In this document: positions 629-43,689 of the stretch, in pieces
Layout of the letters: each line of letters begins with the position of its first letter
Position numbering within the stretch: the stretch's first letter is position 1
IMG/VR virus record: IMGVR_UViG_3300045988_038444
Location: 1-43,689 of that record
DNA from: a virus
Taxonomy: Duplodnaviria; Heunggongvirae; Uroviricota; Caudoviricetes
DNA length: 43,689 bases
Reading direction: 5' to 3' (one strand)
Notes under the pieces: model-generated
Databases searched by the model: none
Told to the model about the DNA's origin: nothing
Seen by the model: the letters and a program-made list of their open reading frames with translations, nothing else
Position numbers and translations under genes: made by a program

Positions 629-2485
629 ATGTCAGATGCTTACGTTCACGATATTGAAAACTATCCTAATGTTTTTCTGTTCGGTGCTATTCACGCGTTA
701 ACTGAAACACCTTATATTTTTGAGATTTCACATCGTCGCGATGATCGTCAGGCTTTTTACCTGTTCACAGAATATTTGCGTGAACATCGTGCTGAAGAAG
801 TTGGTTATAACAATCTGGGTTACGACTATCCTGTTCAGCATTCTATTTTGAACAACATCATGTATATCACCAACGCAGACATTTACAAAAAAGGTGATTC
901 GATAATTAACGCTGGTGATGAAAATCGTTTTGCTCATATGGTGTGGGAAAAAGACTGGATAGTTCCCCAACTTGATTTGTATAAAATTCATCATTTCGAC
1001 AATCAGGCAAAACGAACAAGTCTGAAAACACTTGAATTCAATATGAGAATGGAAAACATTGAAGACCTTCCGTTTACCCCAGGGACTTATTTAACCGATT
1101 CTCAAATTGATACGCTTCGTCAATATCTGATACACGATTTGAAAGCGACTTTGATGTTTTATAAACACAGTAAAAAGCTGATAGATTTTCGTCGTGAACT
1201 TTCTGCTAAATACGGTCGTAATTTCATGAACCATAATGACACGAAAATCGGTAAAGACTATTTCATTATGGAACTTGAAAAATCAGGTATTCAATGTTTC
1301 GAACCGTGTAGCAGAAAACCACGACAGACGCACAGACCATCAATCGCATTGAACAGTGTGATTTTCCCTTATGTCCGTTTTGAACAGCCTGAATTTAATC
1401 GTGTTCTTAACTGGTTACGTCAGCAGGTCATCACTGAAACAAAAGGTGTATTTACAGATTTAAGCGCAGACATTAACGGGTTCTCGTTTGATTTTGGTAC
1501 GGGTGGTATCCACGGGTCTATTGAATCTCAAACTATCAGGTCCACTGAAAATTATGTGATCATCGATCTGGACGTTGCCAGTTTTTACCCGAACCTTGCG
1601 ATCAGTAATGAACTTTATCCGGCACATCTGGGAAAACAATTTTGCACCATTTATAAAAATGTTTACGACATGCGTTCCAGTTACCCGAAAGGTACACCAG
1701 AAAATGCAATGTTAAAACTGGCGTTAAACGGTGTGTATGGTGACAGTAATAACGTATACAGTCCATTCTACGATCCTGCTTATACAATGGCTATTACGAT
1801 TAATGGACAGTTACTTTTGTGCATGTTGGCTGAAGAACTTCTGAAAATCCCTGGTTTGTCCATGATCCAGGCTAACACAGATGGTCTTACGGTTTACGTA
1901 CCACGAGTGTTTACCGGACAAGTAGAACAGGTTCGTCACGCGTGGGAAAAATTAACCAGACTCCAGCTTGAAGAAGCGATTTATGACGTGATGTTTATTC
2001 GCGATGTAAATAATTACATCGCTGTTTATGAAGGCGGTAAGAAAGTTAAACGTAAAGGCGCTTATTGTCACAGTGTTGATCTGGGTTGGCATCAAAACCA
2101 CAGTATGCAGGTTGTTGCAAAAGCGGCTGAAGCAGCACTGGTACACAATAAAGACATTCATGATTTTATAACATCACACGAAGACATTCACGATTTCATG
2201 TTAGTGACGAAAGTACCGCGTAACAGCAAGTTATTATGGGGTGATAAACAGGTTCAGAACATTACCCGTTATTACGTCAGTACAGATGGTGCACCTTTGA
2301 CAAAAGTCATGCCACCGCTGGCAAAATCACTGAAACTGAACCCTGATGCGCCTGAACGCCGCATGTCCGTGTGCAAAGGTTGGTTGACCACTGAGTGCAA
2401 CGACATGAAACGTTTTAACCGGGCAACGCTAAATTATGATTTTTACATCAAAGAAGCTGAAAAACTCGTTGCACCACTTCGGTAA
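629..2485 (+). CDS. DNA polymerase with 3'-5' exonuclease domain (family-B-type motif order)
   Basis: 618 aa. Exonuclease motifs: HDIE, NNLGYDYP, YLIHD. Polymerase motifs: DLDVASFYPN (DxxSxYP), KLALNGVYG (KxxxNxxYG), ANTDG (TDx). Confidence 0.85.
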   Translation: MSDAYVHDIENYPNVFLFGAIHALTETPYIFEISHRRDDRQAFYLFTEYLREHRAEEVGYNNLGYDYPVQHSILNNIMYITNADIYKKGDSIINAGDENRFAHMVWEKDWIVPQLDLYKIHHFDNQAKRTSLKTLEFNMRMENIEDLPFTPGTYLTDSQIDTLRQYLIHDLKATLMFYKHSKKLIDFRRELSAKYGRNFMNHNDTKIGKDYFIMELEKSGIQCFEPCSRKPRQTHRPSIALNSVIFPYVRFEQPEFNRVLNWLRQQVITETKGVFTDLSADINGFSFDFGTGGIHGSIESQTIRSTENYVIIDLDVASFYPNLAISNELYPAHLGKQFCTIYKNVYDMRSSYPKGTPENAMLKLALNGVYGDSNNVYSPFYDPAYTMAITINGQLLLCMLAEELLKIPGLSMIQANTDGLTVYVPRVFTGQVEQVRHAWEKLTRLQLEEAIYDVMFIRDVNNYIAVYEGGKKVKRKGAYCHSVDLGWHQNHSMQVVAKAAEAALVHNKDIHDFITSHEDIHDFMLVTKVPRNSKLLWGDKQVQNITRYYVSTDGAPLTKVMPPLAKSLKLNPDAPERRMSVCKGWLTTECNDMKRFNRATLNYDFYIKEAEKLVAPLR

Positions 2486-16145: not shown

Positions 16146-16187
16146 TTTAAAATAATTCTTGACGGATTACACAATGATGTGTAACCT
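16146..16187 (+). promoter_or_regulatory. conserved sigma70 promoter cassette P1
   Basis: TTTAAAATAATTC + TTGACG (16159-16164), 17 nt, TAACCT (16182-16187). Confidence 0.7.
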
Positions 16188-16398: not shown

Positions 16399-17310
16399 AT
16401 GAGTAGGAAACGTTTAACCACAGAAGAGTTTATCACGCGTGCCCGTGAAGTTCATGGGCACAAATACGATTACTCACTAGTGGAGTATTTGAATTGGCGC
16501 ACACCTGTGAAAATCATCTGTCCTATACATGGAGTGTTTGAACAAATTCCTAATAATCATTTAAAAGGACGCAAGTGTTTATTCTGTGCAGGAAATCAAC
16601 AATCAAATACCAATGAATTTATCACAAGGGGGCGCGAAGTTCATGGGGGTAAGTATGGTTATTCGTTGGTGAAATATAAAGACTCTCGGACCAAAGTGAA
16701 AATCATTTGTCCAATACACGGAATGTTTGAACAACGTCCATATAGTCACTTGCAGCAAAAAGCAGGTTGCCCACAATGTGCTTGGGAACAATTGTCTGAA
16801 CAAAGACGTTTATCCGCCGAAGAATTCATTACTCGTGCTCGCGAAGTTCACGGGGACCGTTACGACTATTCGTTGGTGGAGTATGTTAACAATTCCACCC
16901 CTGTAAAAATTATTTGTTCAGAACACGGTGTGTTTGAACAGACACCGGGCAATCACACATTTATGAAAGCTGGCTGTCCCCAGTGCGCTGAAACAGGTTT
17001 TAATCCGTCAGAACCCGGCACGTTATATGTACTCGCTGATGATAAACAGTATCCCACTCTGATTAAAATTGGTATTACAAACGACTTAAAACAGCGACTA
17101 CGACAACTACAACGACGAACTCCGCATCTTGTGGTTAAACTTGTATCGTATCCGTTCCCACATGGCGCTGACGCTTACAAACTGGAACAAGAGGTACACA
17201 AGGTCTTTCACGAACTTAATGCGCGTCTCAAAGGCTTTGACGGTGCTACAGAGTGGTTTAAATACTCTCCTGCAATCCTCGATTACATAAATGAAAAAGC
17301 CCGGAACTAA
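16399..17310 (+). CDS. T5orf172 (GIY-YIG-related) homing-endonuclease-like protein with three N-terminal zinc-ribbon repeats
   Basis: Three ~60-aa modules (EEFITRAREVHGxxYDYSLVEY...KIICPxHGxFEQxPxxH...GCPQCA). The C-terminus reads GTLYVL...IKIGITNDLKQRLRQL...ATEWF. Confidence 0.75.
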   Translation: MSRKRLTTEEFITRAREVHGHKYDYSLVEYLNWRTPVKIICPIHGVFEQIPNNHLKGRKCLFCAGNQQSNTNEFITRGREVHGGKYGYSLVKYKDSRTKVKIICPIHGMFEQRPYSHLQQKAGCPQCAWEQLSEQRRLSAEEFITRAREVHGDRYDYSLVEYVNNSTPVKIICSEHGVFEQTPGNHTFMKAGCPQCAETGFNPSEPGTLYVLADDKQYPTLIKIGITNDLKQRLRQLQRRTPHLVVKLVSYPFPHGADAYKLEQEVHKVFHELNARLKGFDGATEWFKYSPAILDYINEKARN

Positions 17311-17330: not shown

Positions 17331-18025
17331 CTTCATCTCGACAACACGTGCAGACCGCAATGCTGTTAACAATTTCCATAGGAACTGTACATCAACGTTG
17401 TACACCCGTGCGTAACGTTCACAGGCAACCCAATCACTATTTATCAAATCAAGATAAGCATACCAATAAAAAACAGCATCAGGTCGCAATTCAGGACGTT
17501 TCTGTACAACAACCGGAACAGATATACCACGTGCAGCCGCCCCTTGTGTAACCCAGTCCAGGTCGTCCCCGTCTGTCTTATCGTTCCACAAGAGGAAGTC
17601 GATCAGTTTTTTTCAATCTGTTTTTCCCATTCGTCCTGGAAGAATGCGGAATTAATTGCGAACTGAATAACACGGCTGTAGATCACCTGACCAAAACGTT
17701 CATCACTTAACAATTCAATAGCTTCTTCGACACTGAATGGTTCCGGTTTGTCATCTTCACCAATCAGTTTCCAGTCCAGCATAAGAACGTTAGCCACAAA
17801 CTTAACACCTTCTGGTGTATATTCCTGATTCCACAGTTTTTCAAAGAAGTTTTCAGACAACACACCGTTCTGTTTTACATAGTCCGCGACTGTTACGTTA
17901 TATACCTGGTTAGCGGTGTTCAGGTTCAACACGGTGATACTGAAATTTTCATTTAAAATCAGTTCAGCAGAAGACTTCAGCACCAGTGGAGAAAGTGCTT
18001 TTTTCAGATGGTCAAACTTTGACAT
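17307..18025 (-). CDS. tail assembly chaperone GT fusion via -1 programmed frameshift
   Basis: The G frame reads ...GAA AAA AAC TGA. A slip on A_AAA_AAC (plus coordinates 17612-17606) enters the ORF at 17307-17591, which has no RBS or ATG of its own. Confidence 0.6.
17603..18025 (-). CDS. tail assembly chaperone G
   Basis: 140 aa and acidic. Lies between the major tail and tape measure genes and ends at the slippery site. Confidence 0.7.
   Translation of the reverse strand: MSKFDHLKKALSPLVLKSSAELILNENFSITVLNLNTANQVYNVTVADYVKQNGVLSENFFEKLWNQEYTPEGVKFVANVLMLDWKLIGEDDKPEPFSVEEAIELLSDERFGQVIYSRVIQFAINSAFFQDEWEKQIEKN
17606..17612 (-). promoter_or_regulatory. -1 ribosomal frameshift slippery heptamer A_AAA_AAC
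   Basis: The run of 7 T on the plus strand (17607-17613) is A7 on the minus strand and fits X_XXY_YYZ in the G frame. The stop codon follows immediately. Confidence 0.6.
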
Positions 18026-21206: not shown

Positions 21207-22103
21207 ATGGGCGGTAAAAGACTAACCAAAGAACAACTAGAGCATAACATAAAAGATATTTGTCAATCAAAAAATTACAAATTTATAAAATGGAAAGACG
21301 GGTTTAAAAACAAAGAATCACGAATTATTTTATCTTGTGTTACACACGGGGAATGGGACACTAAATGTTATCATTTTTTGAATGGTTCTGGTTGTCCGAT
21401 CTGTGGTGGAACACGAACCACAAAAGGGTTAAGAATTGCACAGATTAAAGACAGTTTAACAAATTCTAAATCAAAGTTTATTAAATTTAAAACTAATTTT
21501 CAAAATGGAAATTCTGTTTGTTTGCTGAGCTGTATTGATCATGGTGGATGGGAGACAACAGTCAATAGACTAATCTTTACATCTGTTGATTGCCCGTTGT
21601 GTATAACGAATAGACAGAAAACTAAACAAGAACGAGAAATTGAAATAACAAATAGATGTAAAGAAACAGGGTTGTTTTTTAATAAGATATTCGACGAACA
21701 TCCGACATGGAAATCTAAAATATCATTAAAGTGTTCAACGCATGGTGATTTTGTTACAACAATTAATTCTTTTCTTAGTAAACAAAAAGGTTGTCCAAAC
21801 TGTAGTAAAACAGGGTTTAAAGCTGGTAAGTATGCAACACTTTATGTCTTGCGGTCCACATGCGGTCGTTACGTTAAAATAGGTATCAGTAATTGTGTAG
21901 AGCAAAGAATTAATACACTTCGTAGAAAAACACCATTTGATTTTCAAGTAATAGAAAAATTGAATGGACACGGGGCAACCATTCGTTCACTTGAAAAAGA
22001 TTTTCATTCTCATTTTGAATCTGCAGGATTAACCGGGTTCGATGGTTGTACAGAGTGGTTAAAATGGAATCCAAATATAACCACTCTGATACGGATGTTA
22101 TAG
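21207..22103 (+). CDS. T5orf172 (GIY-YIG-related) homing-endonuclease-like protein, second family member
   Basis: Three Cys/His modules (CVTHGEW...GCPICGG; CIDHGGW...DCPLCI; CSTHGDF...GCPNCS). The C-terminus reads ATLYVL...VKIGISNCVEQRINTL...CTEWLKW. Strongly AT-rich. Sits antisense between two neck genes. Confidence 0.75.
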   Translation: MGGKRLTKEQLEHNIKDICQSKNYKFIKWKDGFKNKESRIILSCVTHGEWDTKCYHFLNGSGCPICGGTRTTKGLRIAQIKDSLTNSKSKFIKFKTNFQNGNSVCLLSCIDHGGWETTVNRLIFTSVDCPLCITNRQKTKQEREIEITNRCKETGLFFNKIFDEHPTWKSKISLKCSTHGDFVTTINSFLSKQKGCPNCSKTGFKAGKYATLYVLRSTCGRYVKIGISNCVEQRINTLRRKTPFDFQVIEKLNGHGATIRSLEKDFHSHFESAGLTGFDGCTEWLKWNPNITTLIRML

Positions 22104-25309: not shown

Positions 25310-26568
25310 TATTCGTCACCTCGCATCGCTTCGATTGCTTCCTGACCTTTTTTAGTTGCAGAAACTGCCTGCATAGCCTGGGTGCGTGTTTTACCCGGAT
25401 TTGCTTTCAGCCATTCGTTGATCATGTCTTCCAGTGCACTGGAACCTTTACCACTACCGTTCGGCGCTGCTGGCTCTTTACGTGCTTTCCAGAGTTCGTC
25501 GGCCTGTTTGAGTTTTTCAACCAGAAAGTTACGATCCGCTTCCGGTAAACGCTCAAGAGTCATGACCATTTGGGTTTTCTGTACCATTTCACCCGGAATG
25601 TGTGCGAAATCAGCGTTCACGGTTTTTTCAGCTTTCGCCAGTGCCGCTTCAGTCTGTGCTTTGCGAAGTTGTTCGTCCTGAGATTTCAGAACATCATACA
25701 TCGGACCAGCTACAGACTTCTGAACAACCTGACCAGCAATCGTGGTAAACGATTCATCAGCCTGTTTAGCCATCGTCACGAGGGCATCGCGAGCAGTGGC
25801 ATCCATTTTACGGAATGCTTCCTGATCAGATTCAGGCAGAGAATTATGATACGCCTTATGGACGTCGTTCATCTCAGCCAGGGCTTTGTATTTTTCCAGT
25901 TCGGACATTTCGATTTCCTCTGCCGTTTTTAAAACTTGAGGTACTTCCTGGTCCGGGTGTAATTTTTTCCACGCGGATCGGACTTTGTTTTTCACACCTG
26001 CTAAATCGGCTTCAGGGATTTCAACTTTGTTACCGCGATAACCCGGACCTAATGCAGCAAGTGCAGCGCCTACAATACGCGCATCAGGTTCACCGCCAGG
26101 GGTAGCTGTTAAACGAAGTTTCCAGGTTGAAGGTTTTTCTGGATCTGGCACATATGCATAATCAGATGCCGGGAAAACTTCACCGTCTTCAGTTTTACCA
26201 CCTTTCGCTTTATTCATCGAAATACCAGCGGCCTGTTGCAACGTTATAATATATTCATTTACCGCGTCACGCAATGCTGCTTGTTTATCGGTAACAGAAT
26301 CATCTTTTGCAATATCCTCTGCTGCTTCATAAAGCGCATCGTTCAACATCCACGAATTAGAGAGGAAATCACGAACTTTCTGTTCAAGTTCTTTTTCAGC
26401 CAGTGCCGCGCTGAATGTTGACTTTAAAAGAACAACAGCAGGCGGTTCTGAATGTGATTTAAGAACAAGAGCATTTGCTCCCTCGTGAGCAGGTTTTGTC
26501 ACGCCGGACAGAAAACCGATCTTCATCGATTTAGCGCGGCGTAAATGATTAGTACCATCTGTACGCAT
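25309..26568 (-). CDS. scaffolding protein
   Basis: 419 aa, Ala/Glu/Lys-rich and helical. Its ATG overlaps the upstream stop (TAATG). Lies upstream of the capsid gene. Confidence 0.5.
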   Translation of the reverse strand: MRTDGTNHLRRAKSMKIGFLSGVTKPAHEGANALVLKSHSEPPAVVLLKSTFSAALAEKELEQKVRDFLSNSWMLNDALYEAAEDIAKDDSVTDKQAALRDAVNEYIITLQQAAGISMNKAKGGKTEDGEVFPASDYAYVPDPEKPSTWKLRLTATPGGEPDARIVGAALAALGPGYRGNKVEIPEADLAGVKNKVRSAWKKLHPDQEVPQVLKTAEEIEMSELEKYKALAEMNDVHKAYHNSLPESDQEAFRKMDATARDALVTMAKQADESFTTIAGQVVQKSVAGPMYDVLKSQDEQLRKAQTEAALAKAEKTVNADFAHIPGEMVQKTQMVMTLERLPEADRNFLVEKLKQADELWKARKEPAAPNGSGKGSSALEDMINEWLKANPGKTRTQAMQAVSATKKGQEAIEAMRGDE

Positions 26569-26978
26569 TATTCCACATCCTCATAATATGCAGTTCCACC
26601 GATACTATATCCCGTATATTCACCAGTCTGAAACTTTTTCAAAACTTCGTCATCAGTTATCAACGTACCAACAATGACGCCTGTCTGATCCAGTTTATCA
26701 ACCAGTCCAAAACTTGCTGCAATGTCTTCGGTCATCGGGAACGCAAACACAACTTTCCCAACAGGTTGTTGATTATGCATATTATCCATGATGCGCTGAT
26801 CAGAATTCATGAAGTCCAACCATGCTTTCAGAGTGACATCCTCGGGAAATTGCTCGTTGTCCGTGTCTGTGTAAATTTCTAACTGACCTGTCTCCTGATT
26901 ACGTTTTTTACAGATACTACCCCAACCGAATACCATACGTAGTGAGTTGTCAACCTTATTAACTTTTACGTTAATCAC
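26568..26978 (-). CDS. XkdF-like prohead protease domain protein
   Basis: ...FGWGSI...TDTDNEQFPED...HNQQPVGKVV...GEYTGYSIGG resembles the XkdF/S78-type family (from memory). Confidence 0.45.
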   Translation of the reverse strand: MINVKVNKVDNSLRMVFGWGSICKKRNQETGQLEIYTDTDNEQFPEDVTLKAWLDFMNSDQRIMDNMHNQQPVGKVVFAFPMTEDIAASFGLVDKLDQTGVIVGTLITDDEVLKKFQTGEYTGYSIGGTAYYEDVE

Positions 26979-27385
26979 GGGGATTGTCCTCGTATTGTTT
27001 CAACATGACTAAATTCTAACATTTCGGATGAATAATTGCACTGGTGATACACGCTGTTTACAACGTTACCGAATATCTCAGAAAGATTCTTGATCGGTTC
27101 AACAGCAGTCGTTACTGGTTCAACAGCAGTCGTTACTGGTTCAACAGTAGTCGTTACCGGTTCAACAGTAGTCGTTACCGGTTCAACAGCAGTCGTTACT
27201 GGTTCAACAGCGTCCAGATGTTCAGCGACAACCTGGAAAAACACTGTGTTAGTTTCACGGTCAATAATAACCACTGTGCTGGAACTATCTTCAACAATGC
27301 TGAATGAGTAGTCGTAACGATCACCGTGAATTTTACGGGCGCGACGAATGAATTCGTCTGTAGCAACTCTGATGTTCGGATCCAT
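26975..27385 (-). CDS. repeat-containing protein with a degenerate endonuclease-type N-terminal module
   Basis: The start is taken at MDPNIRV (RBS AAGAAGGG). ATDEFIRRARKIHGDRYDYSFSIVED parallels EEFITRAREVHGHKYDYSLVEY of 16399-17310, but the Cys/His ligands are lost. This is followed by (VEPVTTA/T)x5. Confidence 0.5.
   Translation of the reverse strand: MDPNIRVATDEFIRRARKIHGDRYDYSFSIVEDSSSTVVIIDRETNTVFFQVVAEHLDAVEPVTTAVEPVTTTVEPVTTTVEPVTTAVEPVTTAVEPIKNLSEIFGNVVNSVYHQCNYSSEMLEFSHVETIRGQSP
27096..27213. repeat. 21-bp tandem repeat, about 5.6 copies
   Basis: ggttcaacagcagtcgttact-type units start at 27096, 27117, 27138, 27159 and 27180, with a partial unit at 27201. In frame on the minus strand. 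Confidence 0.95.
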
Positions 27386-27530
27386 ACATTCAACCCTTCT
27401 TGTTCTCTTAACCACAGGGTAGTTGTGTCGGTGTAATCCGTCAAGAATTATTTTGCGTATAGATTCATGGGAAGTATGCGACCCCCTATACCTTTTAAAC
27501 CTCTCCTACTTGCAGCAACTTTTACTACTT

Positions 27531-27637
27531 ATACTACTCTTCTATTTATCTATGTTTATTATGTTTTCTATAAAAAGATAACAAAAAGAATAAGATAGAG
27601 AGGGGTTGGTTAAAAAGTAAACATGACGAAATATATG
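27531..27637. repeat. dispersed ~105-bp AT-rich repeat, copy 1 (partner at 42606-42713)
   Basis: ...ctatgtttattatgttttctataaaaagataacaaaaagaataagatagagaggggttggttaaaaagtaaacatgacgaaatatatg aligns with copy 2 in direct orientation with few mismatches. Confidence 0.8.
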
Positions 27638-27652
27638 AATCTATGATCTACT

Positions 27653-27669
27653 AATACACGTTCTGTATT
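27653..27669. promoter_or_regulatory. palindromic operator-like site 1 (AATACA-CGTTC-TGTATT)
   Basis: Perfect 6-bp arms with a 5-bp spacer. Confidence 0.5.
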
Positions 27670-27715
27670 AGCCGCAACTCAAAATCATGAAACCTATGTA
27701 GAACTATGTGCAGTT

Positions 27716-27732
27716 AGTACACGTTCTGTATT
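27716..27732. promoter_or_regulatory. palindromic operator-like site 2 (AGTACA-CGTTC-TGTATT)
   Basis: Lies 63 bp from site 1 and ends 22 bp upstream of the -35 of P3. Confidence 0.5.
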
Positions 27733-27741
27733 AACTGCATC

Positions 27742-27783
27742 TTTAAAATAATTCTTGACGGATTACACCGACGCAACTATCTT
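27742..27783 (+). promoter_or_regulatory. conserved sigma70 promoter cassette P3
   Basis: TTTAAAATAATTC + TTGACG (27755-27760), 17 nt, TATCTT (27778-27783). Confidence 0.7.
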
Positions 27784-27814
27784 GTGGTTAACAGGAAGAA
27801 AAAGGAGACATGCA

Positions 27815-27883
27815 ATGATTTACTACATACTGGCTTTCATGATTTTCGCAGCACCTGTGATCGTAGGAATAGTAAGAGGTTAA
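27815..27883 (+). CDS. possible 22-aa hydrophobic leader peptide
   Basis: AGGAGA, 5 nt, then ATG. Encodes MIYYILAFMIFAAPVIVGIVRG. Its stop is 4 nt before the next ATG. Confidence 0.3.
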   Translation: MIYYILAFMIFAAPVIVGIVRG

Positions 27884-27887
27884 CAGT

Positions 27888-28436
27888 ATGAACGAACTGA
27901 CAAACACCAACGTTGATTTCACAATGTCCAGCCTGGATTTCTTGAAGAATGTTATCAACCCAGCACGTGTGGCTGAAGGTGAGGAAGTCTGGGTCCGTCA
28001 TAATGATTTCTTAGCCAGAGTTAAGGATGAATTAGAAGGTCAAGTTTTGGTTACGAAACTTTTCACACCCAAACTTCAGGGAAGAGGTGGCAATAGAAAA
28101 CCGTTTGAAGTGGTCGATCTAAACATGGATCAAATGCTTCTTGTGGGTATGCGTGAATCTAAAGCCGTTCGCAAAGCTGTATTAGCCAAATTAAAGAAGT
28201 TGAATAACCACCAACACCAACCGTTACTACAGTTACAGTGTGAAATCGGAGAATTGCACAAACAGAATGACGAACTACGTAACGAAATTGAAGTCGATCG
28301 TAAGACCTATGATTTGTTGTTGGTAGACATGAAAAAGTTATGGGAAGAGAAAGAAAATCTGCAAAAAGAATTAACTGCTTTGCGTAAACAGGATGATGTT
28401 CGTAAACGTGCGCTTAAACTTTTACTTGGGTTATAA
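27888..28436 (+). CDS. Rha-like / antirepressor-like regulatory protein with C-terminal coiled coil
   Basis: N-terminal SSLDFLKNV...RHNDFLARVKDEL...MLLVGMRESKAVRKAVLAKL resembles the Rha family (from memory). Confidence 0.4.
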   Translation: MNELTNTNVDFTMSSLDFLKNVINPARVAEGEEVWVRHNDFLARVKDELEGQVLVTKLFTPKLQGRGGNRKPFEVVDLNMDQMLLVGMRESKAVRKAVLAKLKKLNNHQHQPLLQLQCEIGELHKQNDELRNEIEVDRKTYDLLLVDMKKLWEEKENLQKELTALRKQDDVRKRALKLLLGL

Positions 28437-28881: not shown

Positions 28882-29111
28882 ATGGGAATGAAACAAATAT
28901 GGGATGGTAAAACCTTCCTTCTGTTGGTTGTGAAGTATTGATCCATCTGGCAAGCATTAACAAGTGGGTGGCACGAACTGTTCAGGGTTATGAAATATGG
29001 CCTTCTGTTTATGAAAATGATACGGCACATCACAGGGTAAACATAAAATTTGAAGATAATGTTCGTCTGTTATGTGATGTGCGACCTCTTGACTGGCGTG
29101 AACCTGATTAA
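28882..29111 (+). pseudogene. small gene with an apparent -1 frame disruption
   Basis: Strong RBS AGGAG, 8 nt, then ATG 28882. The frame stops after 19 aa. The -1 frame is open from 28911 to TAA 29109-29111 and reads NLPSVGCEVLIHLASINKWVARTVQGYEIW...LDWREPD. An A4 run lies at 28909-28912. Confidence 0.45.
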
Positions 29112-29114
29112 CTT

Positions 29115-29175
29115 GGTTCGATGGCTGTACTGAGTGGTTAAAATGGAATCCAAATATAACCACTCTAATACGTAT
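29115..29175 (+). pseudogene. 61-bp fossil of the 3' end of a T5orf172 endonuclease gene
   Basis: Matches 22036-22096 at 57 of 61 positions, would encode FDGCTEWLKWNPNITTLIR, and has stop codons just upstream in that frame. Confidence 0.75.
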
Positions 29176-38094: not shown

Positions 38095-38122
38095 AGTTTA
38101 CCACGGGTGATTGGTGGTGACA
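38095..38122 (-). promoter_or_regulatory. candidate minus-strand promoter for terL (TGTCAC, 16 nt, TAAACT)
   Basis: Same geometry and the same CCCGTGGTAAACT core as the region upstream of the tape measure gene. Back-to-back with P7. Confidence 0.35.
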
Positions 38123-41697: not shown

Positions 41698-42333
41698 TTA
41701 TTTAAGCGCTTTCTGATACAGTTGCGCGATGTCGTCAATAGTTGCACCTTCAGGAACACTCTGAACCACGTTTCCAACCACACCAGACAATTCCACACGG
41801 TCGATACTGTTCCCGGTGATCTTATCCAGTTGTTCAGACGCTTTTGCACGAGTTTTCGGGTCGAACAGTTCACGTGTCACCAGAATGTATCCACCCAGCA
41901 TGTAACGTTTGTAGCAAACTACGTACTGTTGTAGATGGCTGGGGATATCGTCGGTACTGTTCACCCACAGGTGTTTCGCTTCCGTGTCGTCTTCACCAGG
42001 AACGATGACACGCTGACAATACGGTTCCAGTAATTCTTCAGCCGTGCTTGCCGCTCGTTTCCACCACTCGACACGACTCGTTAACGATTCCCCTACAGAC
42101 TCAAGCGCATGACTTCCCATCGCGTCCAGATAGTTCAACACCTTCGTATTCGACAGGAGGCGATGTGCGGTCGTTGCAGCCGCTGCATCAGACGTGTGAC
42201 CCGGATAAGCCTCTAAAACACATCGCGTATTGCTGAAGCCGTTATTGACACGATCTAACCACAGGTTGGCGAACTTGAGCTGTTCCGGCGACAACTCCAG
42301 AGCAGCCCTTTTAGCCCGGTCTGAAATTTTCAT
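41698..42333 (-). CDS. terS: terminase small subunit
   Basis: The start is taken at MKISDRAKRA (GGGAGA, 7 nt, ATG 42333). LSPEQLKFANLWL...CVLEAYPGHTSDAAAATTAHRLLSNTKVLNYL matches the Terminase_2-type N-terminal DNA-binding region. Confidence 0.75.
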   Translation of the reverse strand: MKISDRAKRAALELSPEQLKFANLWLDRVNNGFSNTRCVLEAYPGHTSDAAAATTAHRLLSNTKVLNYLDAMGSHALESVGESLTSRVEWWKRAASTAEELLEPYCQRVIVPGEDDTEAKHLWVNSTDDIPSHLQQYVVCYKRYMLGGYILVTRELFDPKTRAKASEQLDKITGNSIDRVELSGVVGNVVQSVPEGATIDDIAQLYQKALK

Positions 42334-42605
42334 AAATTTGTCTCCCATAAATTTTAAATTAGTTTCCCACAGATACCCACGGGTTGTCCACACGCCCTGT
42401 TTTACAGCTAATACAATGTTAATATTAAGTTTACAGTTAGTGCACAATATGCATTAATTTTCGACTATATACATAAATACGTAGCCCATAATCACAATGA
42501 TTTCAAAGACTTGCATAAAAACATAGATTACAATAGGTATCTCCCAGACTTTTATTTTAGCTCTATTTACAGCTAATACACTATATGCACTATCTCTATC
42601 TTTCT

Positions 42606-42713
42606 ATACTACTTCTTCTTTATATCTATGTTTTCTATGTTATCTATAAAAAGATAATAAAAAGAATAAGATAGAGAAGGGTCGGTTAAAAAATAAACAT
42701 GACGAAATCTATG
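42606..42713. repeat. dispersed ~105-bp AT-rich repeat, copy 2 (partner at 27531-27637)
   Basis: Direct-orientation copy with few mismatches. Contains a degenerate version of the promoter cassette (TTAAAAAATAAACATGACGAAAT). Confidence 0.8.
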
Positions 42714-42729
42714 TTAAGTATAACTTTAA

Positions 42730-42913
42730 TGCACAACATGCACTATATAATTCACAACGTGCATTAGCTGTGCCAACATAGATACACAACGTGCACTAAC
42801 AGTTAATACACAACGTGCATCTTGCACTAACTGCTAAAGCACAACATGCACTAAGTGTAAATACACTAACATATAAAGCACGTCTTGCACTAGCTGCTAA
42901 TGCACGTTATGAT
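42730..42913. promoter_or_regulatory. iteron/operator array (at least 6 sites, core CACAAYRTGCA / TGCACGTYNTG)
   Basis: Sites at 42730-42742, 42751-42763, 42783-42795, 42807-42819 and 42838-42850, plus inverted-orientation variants at 42877-42889 and 42901-42913. A further site lies at 42441-42453. Confidence 0.5.
42885..42913 (+). promoter_or_regulatory. candidate sigma70 promoter for the gene at 42945 (TTGCAC, 17 nt, TATGAT), overlapped by iteron-like sites
   Basis: TTGCAC 42885-42890 and TATGAT 42908-42913. Lies about 30 nt upstream of the RBS AAGAAGGG. Confidence 0.45.
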
Positions 42914-42944
42914 TTATCCGTGGTCAAACAAGAAGGGTATGATA

Positions 42945-43689
42945 ATGAAAAAGAACCTTTTAGACGAATTAATAGATTTAAAAGGCGGGGTACAAAACGC
43001 TGTTGAATACCTTAATCGTCGAGGTGTTAAGGTGACTGTTGGTCGTTACAACCAATGGTTAAGCGGTAGGTTTCATCCTAAATATGAAACGATCAGTATT
43101 ATTCTTGAAGAGATTACTGACTTCACACTGTCACCCTTGCCAGTACAACATTCTGACGAAAACATTGTTCTTAAACACACAATACCGGTTACCGAACTGC
43201 GTCAGAAATTACCACACAGACGTTTTGCTAATAACTACTGGCAACGTGTCAGATACGTTGATTCACAGATCCTGGAAGCTGTTCACGGTCACGACGTGTG
43301 GACACGGTTTGAGGCGATGTGTGGTAATTTTGAATGTGCAAGATATGTGCTACGCAGAAATTTAAACGAACACACAATTACTGACAGTTGGATTCAAAAT
43401 GGTTTGCGCCGGGGATGGATCCCGGAATGTGTAAACGTAATGGTCGATTTGCTTGAAAAATACGAAGGCACCGGGACACCGTTTAACGTAATGGTTTGTG
43501 AACCACCTGTATCACGAGTGGAACCACCTGTATCACGAGTGGAAGCACCTGTATCACGAGTGGAACCACCTGTATCACGAGTGGAAGCACCTGTAGCACG
43601 AGTTGAAGCACCTGTAGCACGATTTGAACCGCCTGTAGTCGATGTCAGCGATTTGAAGGAGAAAATCAGACTGTATGCGTTATCACACA
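42945..43689 (+). CDS. N-terminal part of an HTH-containing, repeat-bearing protein; runs off the window end
   Basis: RBS AAGAAGGG, 7 nt, then ATG 42945. The frame is open to base 43689. The N-terminus ...GGVQNAVEYLNRRGVKVTVGRYNQWLSGRF is Cro/YdaS-like HTH. It ends in the (E-P/A-P-V-S/A-R-V)x7 repeats. There is no stop in the window, so it is absent from the track. Confidence 0.6.
   Translation, partial: MKKNLLDELIDLKGGVQNAVEYLNRRGVKVTVGRYNQWLSGRFHPKYETISIILEEITDFTLSPLPVQHSDENIVLKHTIPVTELRQKLPHRRFANNYWQRVRYVDSQILEAVHGHDVWTRFEAMCGNFECARYVLRRNLNEHTITDSWIQNGLRRGWIPECVNVMVDLLEKYEGTGTPFNVMVCEPPVSRVEPPVSRVEAPVSRVEPPVSRVEAPVARVEAPVARFEPPVVDVSDLKEKIRLYALSH
43500..43646. repeat. 21-bp tandem repeat, about 7 copies
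   Basis: gaaccacctgtatcacgagtg-type units start at 43500, 43521, 43542, 43563, 43584, 43605 and 43626. The distal units are progressively diverged. Confidence 0.95.

Follow-up and report, generated by a model that had tools for sequence, protein, structure and literature searches.

What might a phage gain from carrying the same AT-rich element twice, in two intergenic regions about 15 kb apart? The question is raised by the viral contig IMGVR_UViG_3300045988_038444, analysed over its full 43,689 nucleotides (hereafter the window). The window holds roughly 44 kb from a 9NA-like siphophage in the Sashavirus/Nonanavirus group, and the stretches searched are 95–97% identical to the Escherichia phages KarinMuster_Bas82, PJ16, AVIO78A and PDP46 and to the Sashavirus phages 536P12 and BDX09P1. 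Its minus strand carries the structural genes, which are broken up by clusters of small plus-strand genes. The first region, A, lies between a head-morphogenesis gene resembling SPP1 gp7, together with small accessory genes, and the block encoding protease, scaffold and capsid. The second, region B, lies between the small terminase gene terS on the minus strand and a plus-strand gene for a helix-turn-helix (HTH)-like protein. Divergently transcribed units border both regions. Comparison with relatives strongly supports A and B being a functional pair, each combining an AT-rich element of the unwinding type with repeated sites, and one of them adjoining the gene of a putative DNA-binding protein. 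As to what the pair does, we tentatively favour two replication origins built from iterons and an unwinding element, by analogy with oriL and oriR of phage SPP1, whose iterons would in addition contact an early promoter; almost as probable is a region devoted to transcriptional control alone.

The AT-rich elements and their dyad sites

A first-pass annotation of the window had described a direct repeat of about 105 bp in both regions, and three methods bear it out at approximately 90% identity. A repeat search matched 27538–27637 with 42614–42713 (family D7; 90% identity over 100 nt, ungapped), and MAFFT and BLAST extended the repeat to about 27530–27637 and 42605–42713 (109 nt, 89.9% identity, one indel, E value of ~2e-37). 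The anatomy of the two copies, placed from sequence and alignment, is as follows, with the strand given where a feature has one.

27531–27637: AT-rich element, copy A; on the plus strand pyrimidines make up 73% of the left half and purines 80% of the right half
42605–42713: AT-rich element, copy B, in the same orientation as copy A and 15,076 bp away
27547–27573, plus strand: three tandem 9-mers of copy A (TWTCTATRY), reading TATCTATGT, TTATTATGT and TTTCTATAA
42623–42649, plus strand: three tandem 9-mers of copy B, reading TATCTATGT, TTTCTATGT and TATCTATAA
27570–27602, plus strand: A-tract repeats ATAAAAAGA and ACAAAAAGA of copy A, 11 bp apart, followed by the inverted motif ATAAGATAGAGAG
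42646–42678, plus strand: A-tract pair and inverted motif of copy B
27608–27632, plus strand: right end of copy A, GGTTAAAAAGTAAACATGACGAAAT, loosely resembling the promoter cassette
42684–42708, plus strand: right end of copy B, GGTTAAAAAATAAACATGACGAAAT

Aligned across 19 copies from ten genomes, the element reads from left to right as three 9-mers, two A-tract repeats ATAAAAAGA, an inverted AAGATAGAGA and, last, GGTTAAAAAGTAA. The tandem 9-mers are its best-conserved part (in 9NA, TATCTATAC occurs three times in both A and B), and the A-tract repeats may bend the DNA. The right end had been taken for a degenerate version of the promoter cassette described below. A loose likeness is indeed present (8 of 14 upstream bases plus TGACG), but it is not conserved in the A copies of Sasha and 9NA, which retain GGTTAAAAAGTAA alone, the sole right-end part kept across the family. 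The module tolerates structural variation, as seen from the two copies in PJ16: an 11-bp insertion, about one helical turn, lies inside the 9-mer region of its A copy (locus L007, ~17686–17822), and the A-tract segment of its B copy (at the L008/L007 junction) is rearranged with the total length unchanged.

Both copies fall within the least stable DNA of the window. Duplex stability, computed for 100-bp stretches across the whole window, has a mean of -133.8 kcal/mol (s.d. of 6.9 kcal/mol), and the cores lie about 4 s.d. from it, copy B within the least stable stretch (42573–42672, -104.6 kcal/mol) and copy A within the second least stable (27521–27620, -108.1 kcal/mol).

Flanking the elements are 19-bp dyads, referred to here as iterons, of the form TARTRCAC-N4-TGYAYTA. 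With up to two mismatches allowed, 11 such sites occur in the 43.7 kb and all of them are in regions A and B: element A has two on its right, and element B has two on its left and seven on its right. The looser core TRCA-N5-TGYA has 18 matches where 5.1 are expected, half of them (9 of 18) in the two regions.

27652–27670: dyad A1, TAATACACGTTCTGTATTA, no mismatches, 15 bp right of element A
27715–27733: dyad A2, TAGTACACGTTCTGTATTA, 63 bp from A1 and ending 9 bp upstream of the UP element of the promoter cassette
42438–42456: dyad B-L1, preceded by TTACAG
42574–42592: dyad B-L2, 13 bp left of element B, preceded by TTACAG
42727–42916: array of seven dyads right of element B, starting at 42727, 42748, 42780, 42804, 42835, 42874 and 42898, with 0–2 mismatches each
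42401–42415 and, as a second copy, 42566–42580, plus strand: TTTACAGCTAATACA, composed of the hexamer TTACAG and a half-site

The palindromic consensus proposed in the first-pass annotation, TRCACGTTSTGTA, matches the A sites as written and the B sites when read on the minus strand; the 19-bp dyad describes them better. The other short repeats it listed are likewise found in the sequence, namely the 15-bp direct repeat TTTACAGCTAATACA at its two positions, CAGTTAGTRCAC in both regions (27711–27722 and 42435–42446), and TGTATTAGC at 27664–27672, of which region B holds the reverse complement. The spacing from A1 to A2 is spanned by a 63-bp unit repeat (family D12), and a 63-bp repeat (family D19) is contained in the seven-dyad array, which reaches the ribosome-binding site of the gene at 42945. 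Site A2 overlaps neither the -35 nor the -10 of the neighbouring cassette, and upstream of 42945 the B sites overlie a sequence that weakly resembles a promoter but scores below threshold. The window dyads do not fit parS, a 16-bp palindrome of the TGTTNCACGTGAAACA type bound by a ParB with an HTH domain.

The promoter cassette consists of TTAAAATAATTCTTGAC (UP element and -35), 17 nt and a -10 of the TATCTT/TAACCT type, and is nearly invariant. Nine perfect plus-strand copies (at 16147, 18093, 27743, 31344, 32486, 34709, 38128, 39490 and 41338) and one near-perfect minus-strand copy (27440–27456) are present, the window holding 12 matches against 0.44 expected by chance, and the perfect copies precede the plus-strand clusters of small genes. 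On either side of element A, cassette and leader form the arms of an inverted repeat (I1, 85% complementary).

27394–27454, minus strand: left arm, 61 nt, consensus cassette and leader, pointing at the head-gene block
27745–27805, plus strand: right arm, consensus cassette (-35 at 27755–27760; -10 TATCTT at 27778–27783) and leader

As these arms are divergent copies, the two promoters flanking element A both fire outward. In the window and in the 9NA, Klebsiella, Proteus and Morganella lineages, the final region A iteron abuts the UP element/-35 of such an outward-firing, early-type promoter, and, since this holds in every lineage examined, some regulatory role is likely. Scans of regions A and B for sigma-70 promoters and terminators returned counts no higher than in shuffled sequence, with no credible promoter in the element. 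Inspection of the regions by eye, made with no tool-based search, gave no convincing match to a DnaA box, the IHF consensus or a DnaA-trio.

Conservation of the pair and of its neighbouring protein

In close relatives the element is conserved, and both copies occur in each of the eight examined genomes of the Salmonella/E. coli group that are complete or nearly so. The incomplete SP069 record has copy A only, and only the left half of copy B remains in 9NA. The B copies of relatives are 88–98% identical to copy B of the window. Identity between copies A and B of the same genome differs by lineage.

E. coli lineage (window, PDP46, BDX09P1, 536P12, AVIO78A and Bas82): 88–91%
PJ16: 74%
Sasha: 68%
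9NA: 63%

This span, from 63% to 91%, argues that the pair is old and has been maintained. The A copies of the E. coli lineage are nearer to B copies (~90%) than to the A copies of Sasha and 9NA (71–75%), and the pair appears to have been homogenized occasionally by gene conversion or replaced by mosaic exchange. Among 15 GenBank records carrying the element, the only annotation beneath it is one open reading frame (ORF) for a hypothetical protein, in Bas82. Searches of 5,426 E. coli genomes and 72,556 plasmids returned no match to the element. A mobile element similar to a miniature inverted-repeat transposable element was therefore rejected, there being exactly two copies at fixed gene-order positions and no match in those genomes or plasmids; no search aimed at terminal inverted repeats or target-site duplications was made.

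Across five lineages the pair is kept at the same two positions in the gene order, upstream of terS and upstream of the head protease/scaffold/capsid block, and in two of the five the repeat differs in sequence from the window element. Proteus phage 2207-N35, whose terS is 32% identical to that of the window, has a 268-bp direct repeat (97.4% identity) upstream of the head protease and of terS. Morganella phage Henu15 has a pair of about 375 bp (94–96% identity), 14.4 kb apart, in the same two regions, and Klebsiella phage KP13-27 has the 9-mer core and GCTTACCAG iterons in both. Common to these is a layout of left iterons, a pyrimidine-to-purine AT core and inverted right iterons, which the Proteus and Henu15 modules realize with sequences unrelated to the window element (iterons TGTTTCAC and GTGAAACA in Proteus, TGTTGCAG and CTGCAACA in Henu15). 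In each genome, including Bas82, 9NA, KP13-27, Proteus 2207-N35 and Henu15, the iterons are essentially limited to the two regions. The A and B cores are the two least stable stretches of the Proteus, Klebsiella and 9NA loci; in the Sasha locus the A core is the least stable, and the second-ranked stretch is in region B beside the element, which itself lies outside the locus.

Two features of these distant modules may be recorded here. The iterons of Proteus 2207-N35 (locus L027, 5088–5347 and 20977–21248) are identical to both half-sites of the bacterial parS consensus, are not palindromic, and fall in the two regions in 13 of the 14 copies found in 23 kb. In region B of Henu15, an early-type cassette (locus L028, ~1665–1690, plus strand) points through the module towards terS, and the module would on this arrangement be transcribed as a terS leader; in the window, unlike Henu15, no known promoter reads into either element.

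Adjoining region B is the gene for the HTH-like protein. Four variants of its N-terminus pair with four types of region B iteron, the remainder of the protein being conserved.

42945–43689, plus strand: HTH-like protein gene, truncated by the window end; orthologue of Sasha gp81 and 9NA gp84, candidate iteron-binding protein
N-terminal type of the window and Sasha: region B iteron TAATGCAC-N3-GTGCATTA
N-terminal type of 9NA: region B iteron TAACAC-N3-GTGTTA
N-terminal type of KP13-27: region B iteron GCTTACCAG
N-terminal type of BDX09P1: region B iteron similar to CTATGAYAGGAT

The protein is composed of a variable N-terminus of about 60 residues, a highly conserved centre with a second HTH-like segment, a linker of PPVxRVE repeats and a conserved C-terminal tail, and the linker varies in length from no repeats in 9NA to about 14 in Sasha. 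Directly preceding the variable part of the iteron in all four lineages is the hexamer TTWCRG, which also matches the core of the Proteus and Morganella iterons. This arrangement fits a protein with one conserved and one exchangeable DNA-reading module, and we infer that the HTH-like protein binds the iterons.

The gene at 42945 had been named an HTH-repeat gene. Its HTH-like character stands, on weak evidence, whereas assignment to a Pfam family does not. The AlphaFold model is confident for residues 1–60 only, and Foldseek finds local matches of 53–65 residues to the HTH domains of DdrO, TP901-1 CI, CylR2 and P2 C, all with E > 0.5. A profile of the protein matches multi-HTH_3 proteins (E values of 4e-5 to 1e-4). 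The protein falls in a PHROG of unknown function and has only 12 detectable relatives, and a search of 1.8 billion representative proteins assigned it to no family beyond the weak HTH similarity. With hhalign, the Proteus and Morganella genes beside region B have weak similarity to the gp81 family in the N-terminus only (E values of ~1e-3 to 6e-3). Relatives also encode, a few kb away, a protein with an HTH_ParB domain, which is an alternative candidate for binding the iterons.

Possible explanations: replication origins, operators and others

Paired origins are made credible by the precedent of SPP1 oriL and oriR (PMC6316719). The two SPP1 origins are ~13 kb apart and carry directly repeated sequences along with an unwinding element that is AT-rich; oriR lies among accessory genes between gene 7 and the scaffold gene, and gp38 bound there has been proposed to halt replication forks and to set off the change to concatemer synthesis (PMC6316719). 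Like SPP1, the window phage is a pac-type headful siphophage with two similar modules, 13–15 kb apart on the circular map, each made of repeats for a phage-encoded binding protein (here a candidate) and an AT-rich unwinding element. One copy coincides with or adjoins the gene for the binding protein, and the other is among accessory genes between the gp7-type and scaffold/capsid genes. The differences from SPP1 concern the parts. The gp81-family protein has no detectable homology to replisome organizers or to any Pfam family; both copies are intergenic here, whereas SPP1 oriL is inside gene 38; the iterons are dyads, or inverted sets on both sides of the core; and the clade encodes its own DNA polymerase (PMC11348598), a point that also counts towards origins. 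An origin function here would be one assigned by analogy.

As origins, the two regions would be paired modules acting in cis at the level of DNA. Region B, beside the gene of the binding protein, would be the primary origin and the counterpart of oriL, and region A a second origin, or a site of protein binding and fork arrest, corresponding to oriR. The AT core would be opened by iteron-bound protein together with negative supercoiling from divergent transcription, a contribution suggested by the twin-domain model of transcription-driven supercoiling. The iterons would probably also regulate the gene of the binding protein and the early-type promoter touched by the last A iteron. A more elaborate version, which we consider rather doubtful, would give the Sashavirus–Nonanavirus–Gorganvirus clade a two-origin system with the logic and position of that of SPP1 and unrelated parts. 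Its initiator would be an unrecognized two-module HTH protein, the conserved module reading TTWCRG and the swappable N-terminal module the lineage-specific half-iteron, and the head-region copy would set the switch from theta to concatemer replication, coupled to shut-off of the early promoter.

Two further replication systems resemble the pair in part. The origin of phage lambda has four dyad-symmetric iterons of ~19 bp, bound by protein O, beside a 40-bp AT-rich region, and the N-terminal specificity domain of O varies with the iterons while the remainder is conserved. The dyads here are also of ~19 bp, spaced by ~21–36 bp, beside an AT-rich region. Unlike the single lambda ori inside the O gene, the module here is present twice and has an AT core of ~100 bp with tandem 9-mers, and no Phage_rep_O domain was found here with Pfam. 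In satellite phage P4, the separate cis regions ori and crr, both required for replication, have the same iterated sites for a single phage protein; the alpha protein of P4 is a primase-helicase, unlike the protein here, to which it has no similarity, and the sequences and genome context differ as well.

Several observations weigh against replication origins. Two mosaic phages have different iteron types at the two regions, Sasha with Klebsiella-type iterons at A and window-type iterons at B, and BDX09P1 with window-type iterons at A and its own type at B, so that one protein cannot obviously serve both copies in either. The adjacent protein belongs to no known initiator family, with no Pfam hit and no sequence match in the PDB, and its N-terminus looks, from weak similarity, like an HTH of the Xre/Cro type, a type seen more often in repressors. 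GC skew tracks transcription direction and coding strand, and is uninformative on replication. The sites are dyad-symmetric like operators, and with the last A site abutting an early promoter, a regulatory model explains them equally well. Replication and gene regulation are unstudied in 9NA-like phages (PMC4153490, PMC11990801). Of the first-pass proposal of paired control regions or origins, the functional pairing is upheld by the relatives, the low duplex stability and the tracking of iterons with the protein N-terminus; on the sequence, the pair could be either origins or a transcriptional switch.

Purely transcriptional control is a real possibility. The gp81 family would then be Cro-like early regulators, whose operators at B would repress the gene of the regulator itself and at A would control the early-type promoter, with the divergent terS and head-gene promoters as possible further targets; the AT core would be curved, UP-element-like or nucleoid-protein-binding DNA, and replication would not start at either region. 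Dyads of 19 bp are typical of operators, and the weak Xre/Cro similarity of the N-terminus agrees with such a role, as do the positions of the sites: the last A site abuts the UP element and -35 of the plus-strand cassette in the five lineages named above, the array at B extends into the stretch that holds the ribosome-binding site and putative promoter of the protein's gene, and divergently transcribed units flank both regions. In Cro/CI operator arrays, too, dyad-symmetric sites cluster upstream of the gene for the regulator and next to a further early promoter. Unlike those arrays, one region here has nine sites with a conserved 100-bp AT core between them, and the whole module is duplicated near-identically far away. 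Transcriptional control leaves unexplained why this core is conserved independently of iteron type and is always the least stable DNA, and why whole modules of 268–375 bp are nearly identical at two sites. Promoter signal inside the element is not above chance, and other late-gene blocks (terL, portal) are without the module, and for the master early/late switch suggested in the first-pass annotation these same two findings leave no direct support. The regions could be origins and operators at once, because proteins that bind origins often use their iterons to regulate their own genes.

Recognition by the small terminase is improbable as the function of the pair. The element would in that case be a packaging (pac) region, copy A serving as an additional site or a pseudo-pac. 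In favour of this, terS has copy B 270 bp upstream of it; several GenBank records (9NA, Sasha, Sergei, PDP46 and AVIO78A) have their opening point within copy B or at its edge; and phages whose terS is 83–100% identical share a conserved AT core, which differs where terS is 32% identical. Bent A-tract DNA is also what constitutes pacL of SPP1. Such a role does not account for copy A, 15 kb from terS, or for two copies rather than a single site in every genome with the pair, and the Proteus and Morganella copies, at 94–97% identity, would amount to two equally strong pac sites, whereas 9NA shows a single pac fragment. The 9NA pac region, with a cleavage zone of 170 bp, was reportedly mapped by Zeng et al. 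in 2019.

Slightly less probable again is a by-product without function, either sequence at a recombination or mosaic boundary or a relic duplication kept alike by gene conversion. Conversion or replacement is indicated by the closeness of the E. coli-lineage A copy to the B copies, and mosaic junctions lie near the element in SP069, Sasha and BDX09P1, but a relic would not keep its positions, orientation and layout across genera in which terS is 32% identical and the repeat is unrelated in sequence. A structured non-coding RNA or leader, formed by a long imperfect plus-strand hairpin, is the least probable and was dropped. Although the plus strand of the copies folds better than shuffled sequence (z = -2.6 and -2.8; minus strand, z = -0.6 and -1.8) and the Henu15 promoter reads through module B towards terS, the fold of 13 distinct copies in RNAalifold (-5.0 kcal/mol) is without covariation (covariation term of +0.23, one compensatory pair and several pairs broken in divergent copies), scanning the entire window against Rfam gave no match, the element has no bracketing promoter or terminator in the window, and the fold is a trivial result of the pyrimidine-to-purine mirror composition.

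What the analysis offers is a testable model with two defined cis modules, a candidate binding protein and natural specificity variants. If the regions are origins, they would be a second example, in Gram-negative hosts, of the SPP1-style dual-origin layout, with a new family of origin-binding proteins. Such a pair would be of a known type with sequence-unrelated parts and an uncharacterized binding protein, and would not greatly surprise a specialist. If they are operators, the early regulator of the 9NA-like group would have been identified. In both cases the modules provide useful reference points when engineering these phages, themselves candidates for use in therapy and biocontrol.

Gene context and further repeats

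The genes that border the two regions on the minus strand both read away from them.

41698–42333, minus strand: small terminase gene terS, reading away from region B (phrog_51; annotated as terS in relatives)
26568–27415, minus strand: first genes of the head block, reading away from region A; an extra gene, DUF723-like, is followed by one for an XkdF-type protease (Pfam Peptidase_S78_2)

The extra gene (26975–27415), which separates region A from the gene for the XkdF-type protease, is missing in Sasha and 9NA; in PDP46 it is annotated as DUF723. It contains 21-nt tandem coding repeats (27067–27231) and shares a 56-nt inverted match of 79% identity (16819–16874 with 27303–27358) with gene 16399–17310, itself holding three internal repeats of ~150 nt each (16410–16955). 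On the other side, directly 3' of the region A promoter and ahead of gene 27888–28436, is a conserved mini-ORF (27814–27885, plus strand) that encodes a hydrophobic peptide of ~23 residues, MIYYILAFMIFAAPVIVGIVRG, and is also present in PJ16. The Rha label previously attached to 27888–28436 was not sustained, Pfam giving no Rha hit and the only similarity being a weak N-terminal match to an anti-repressor PHROG.

Both ends of the window are tandem coding repeats, of 30-nt Pro/Ala-rich units at 1–117 and of 21-nt PPVSRVE units at 43479–43646 in the HTH-like gene, which suggests that the contig broke at repeats. A 70-nt repeat (22027–22096 and 29106–29175, 91% identical, with a third, partial copy at 17233–17263) contains the hairpin GAGTGGTTA...TAACCACTC and is found at plus-strand gene 3' ends, where it could serve as a common terminator or encode a C-terminus that related genes share. 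The motif CCYGTGGKTA is enriched in the window, with 35 sites against 7.9 expected, many of them inside genes (examples are 42374–42383, 38098–38107 and 27409–27418 on the minus strand and 27781–27790 on the plus strand). It occurs 25–45 nt upstream of the start codons of terS, terL and the gene starting at 27415, with a two-mismatch variant before the HTH-like gene, and could be the extended -10 (TGgTTAAcT) of a second, middle or late, class of promoters.

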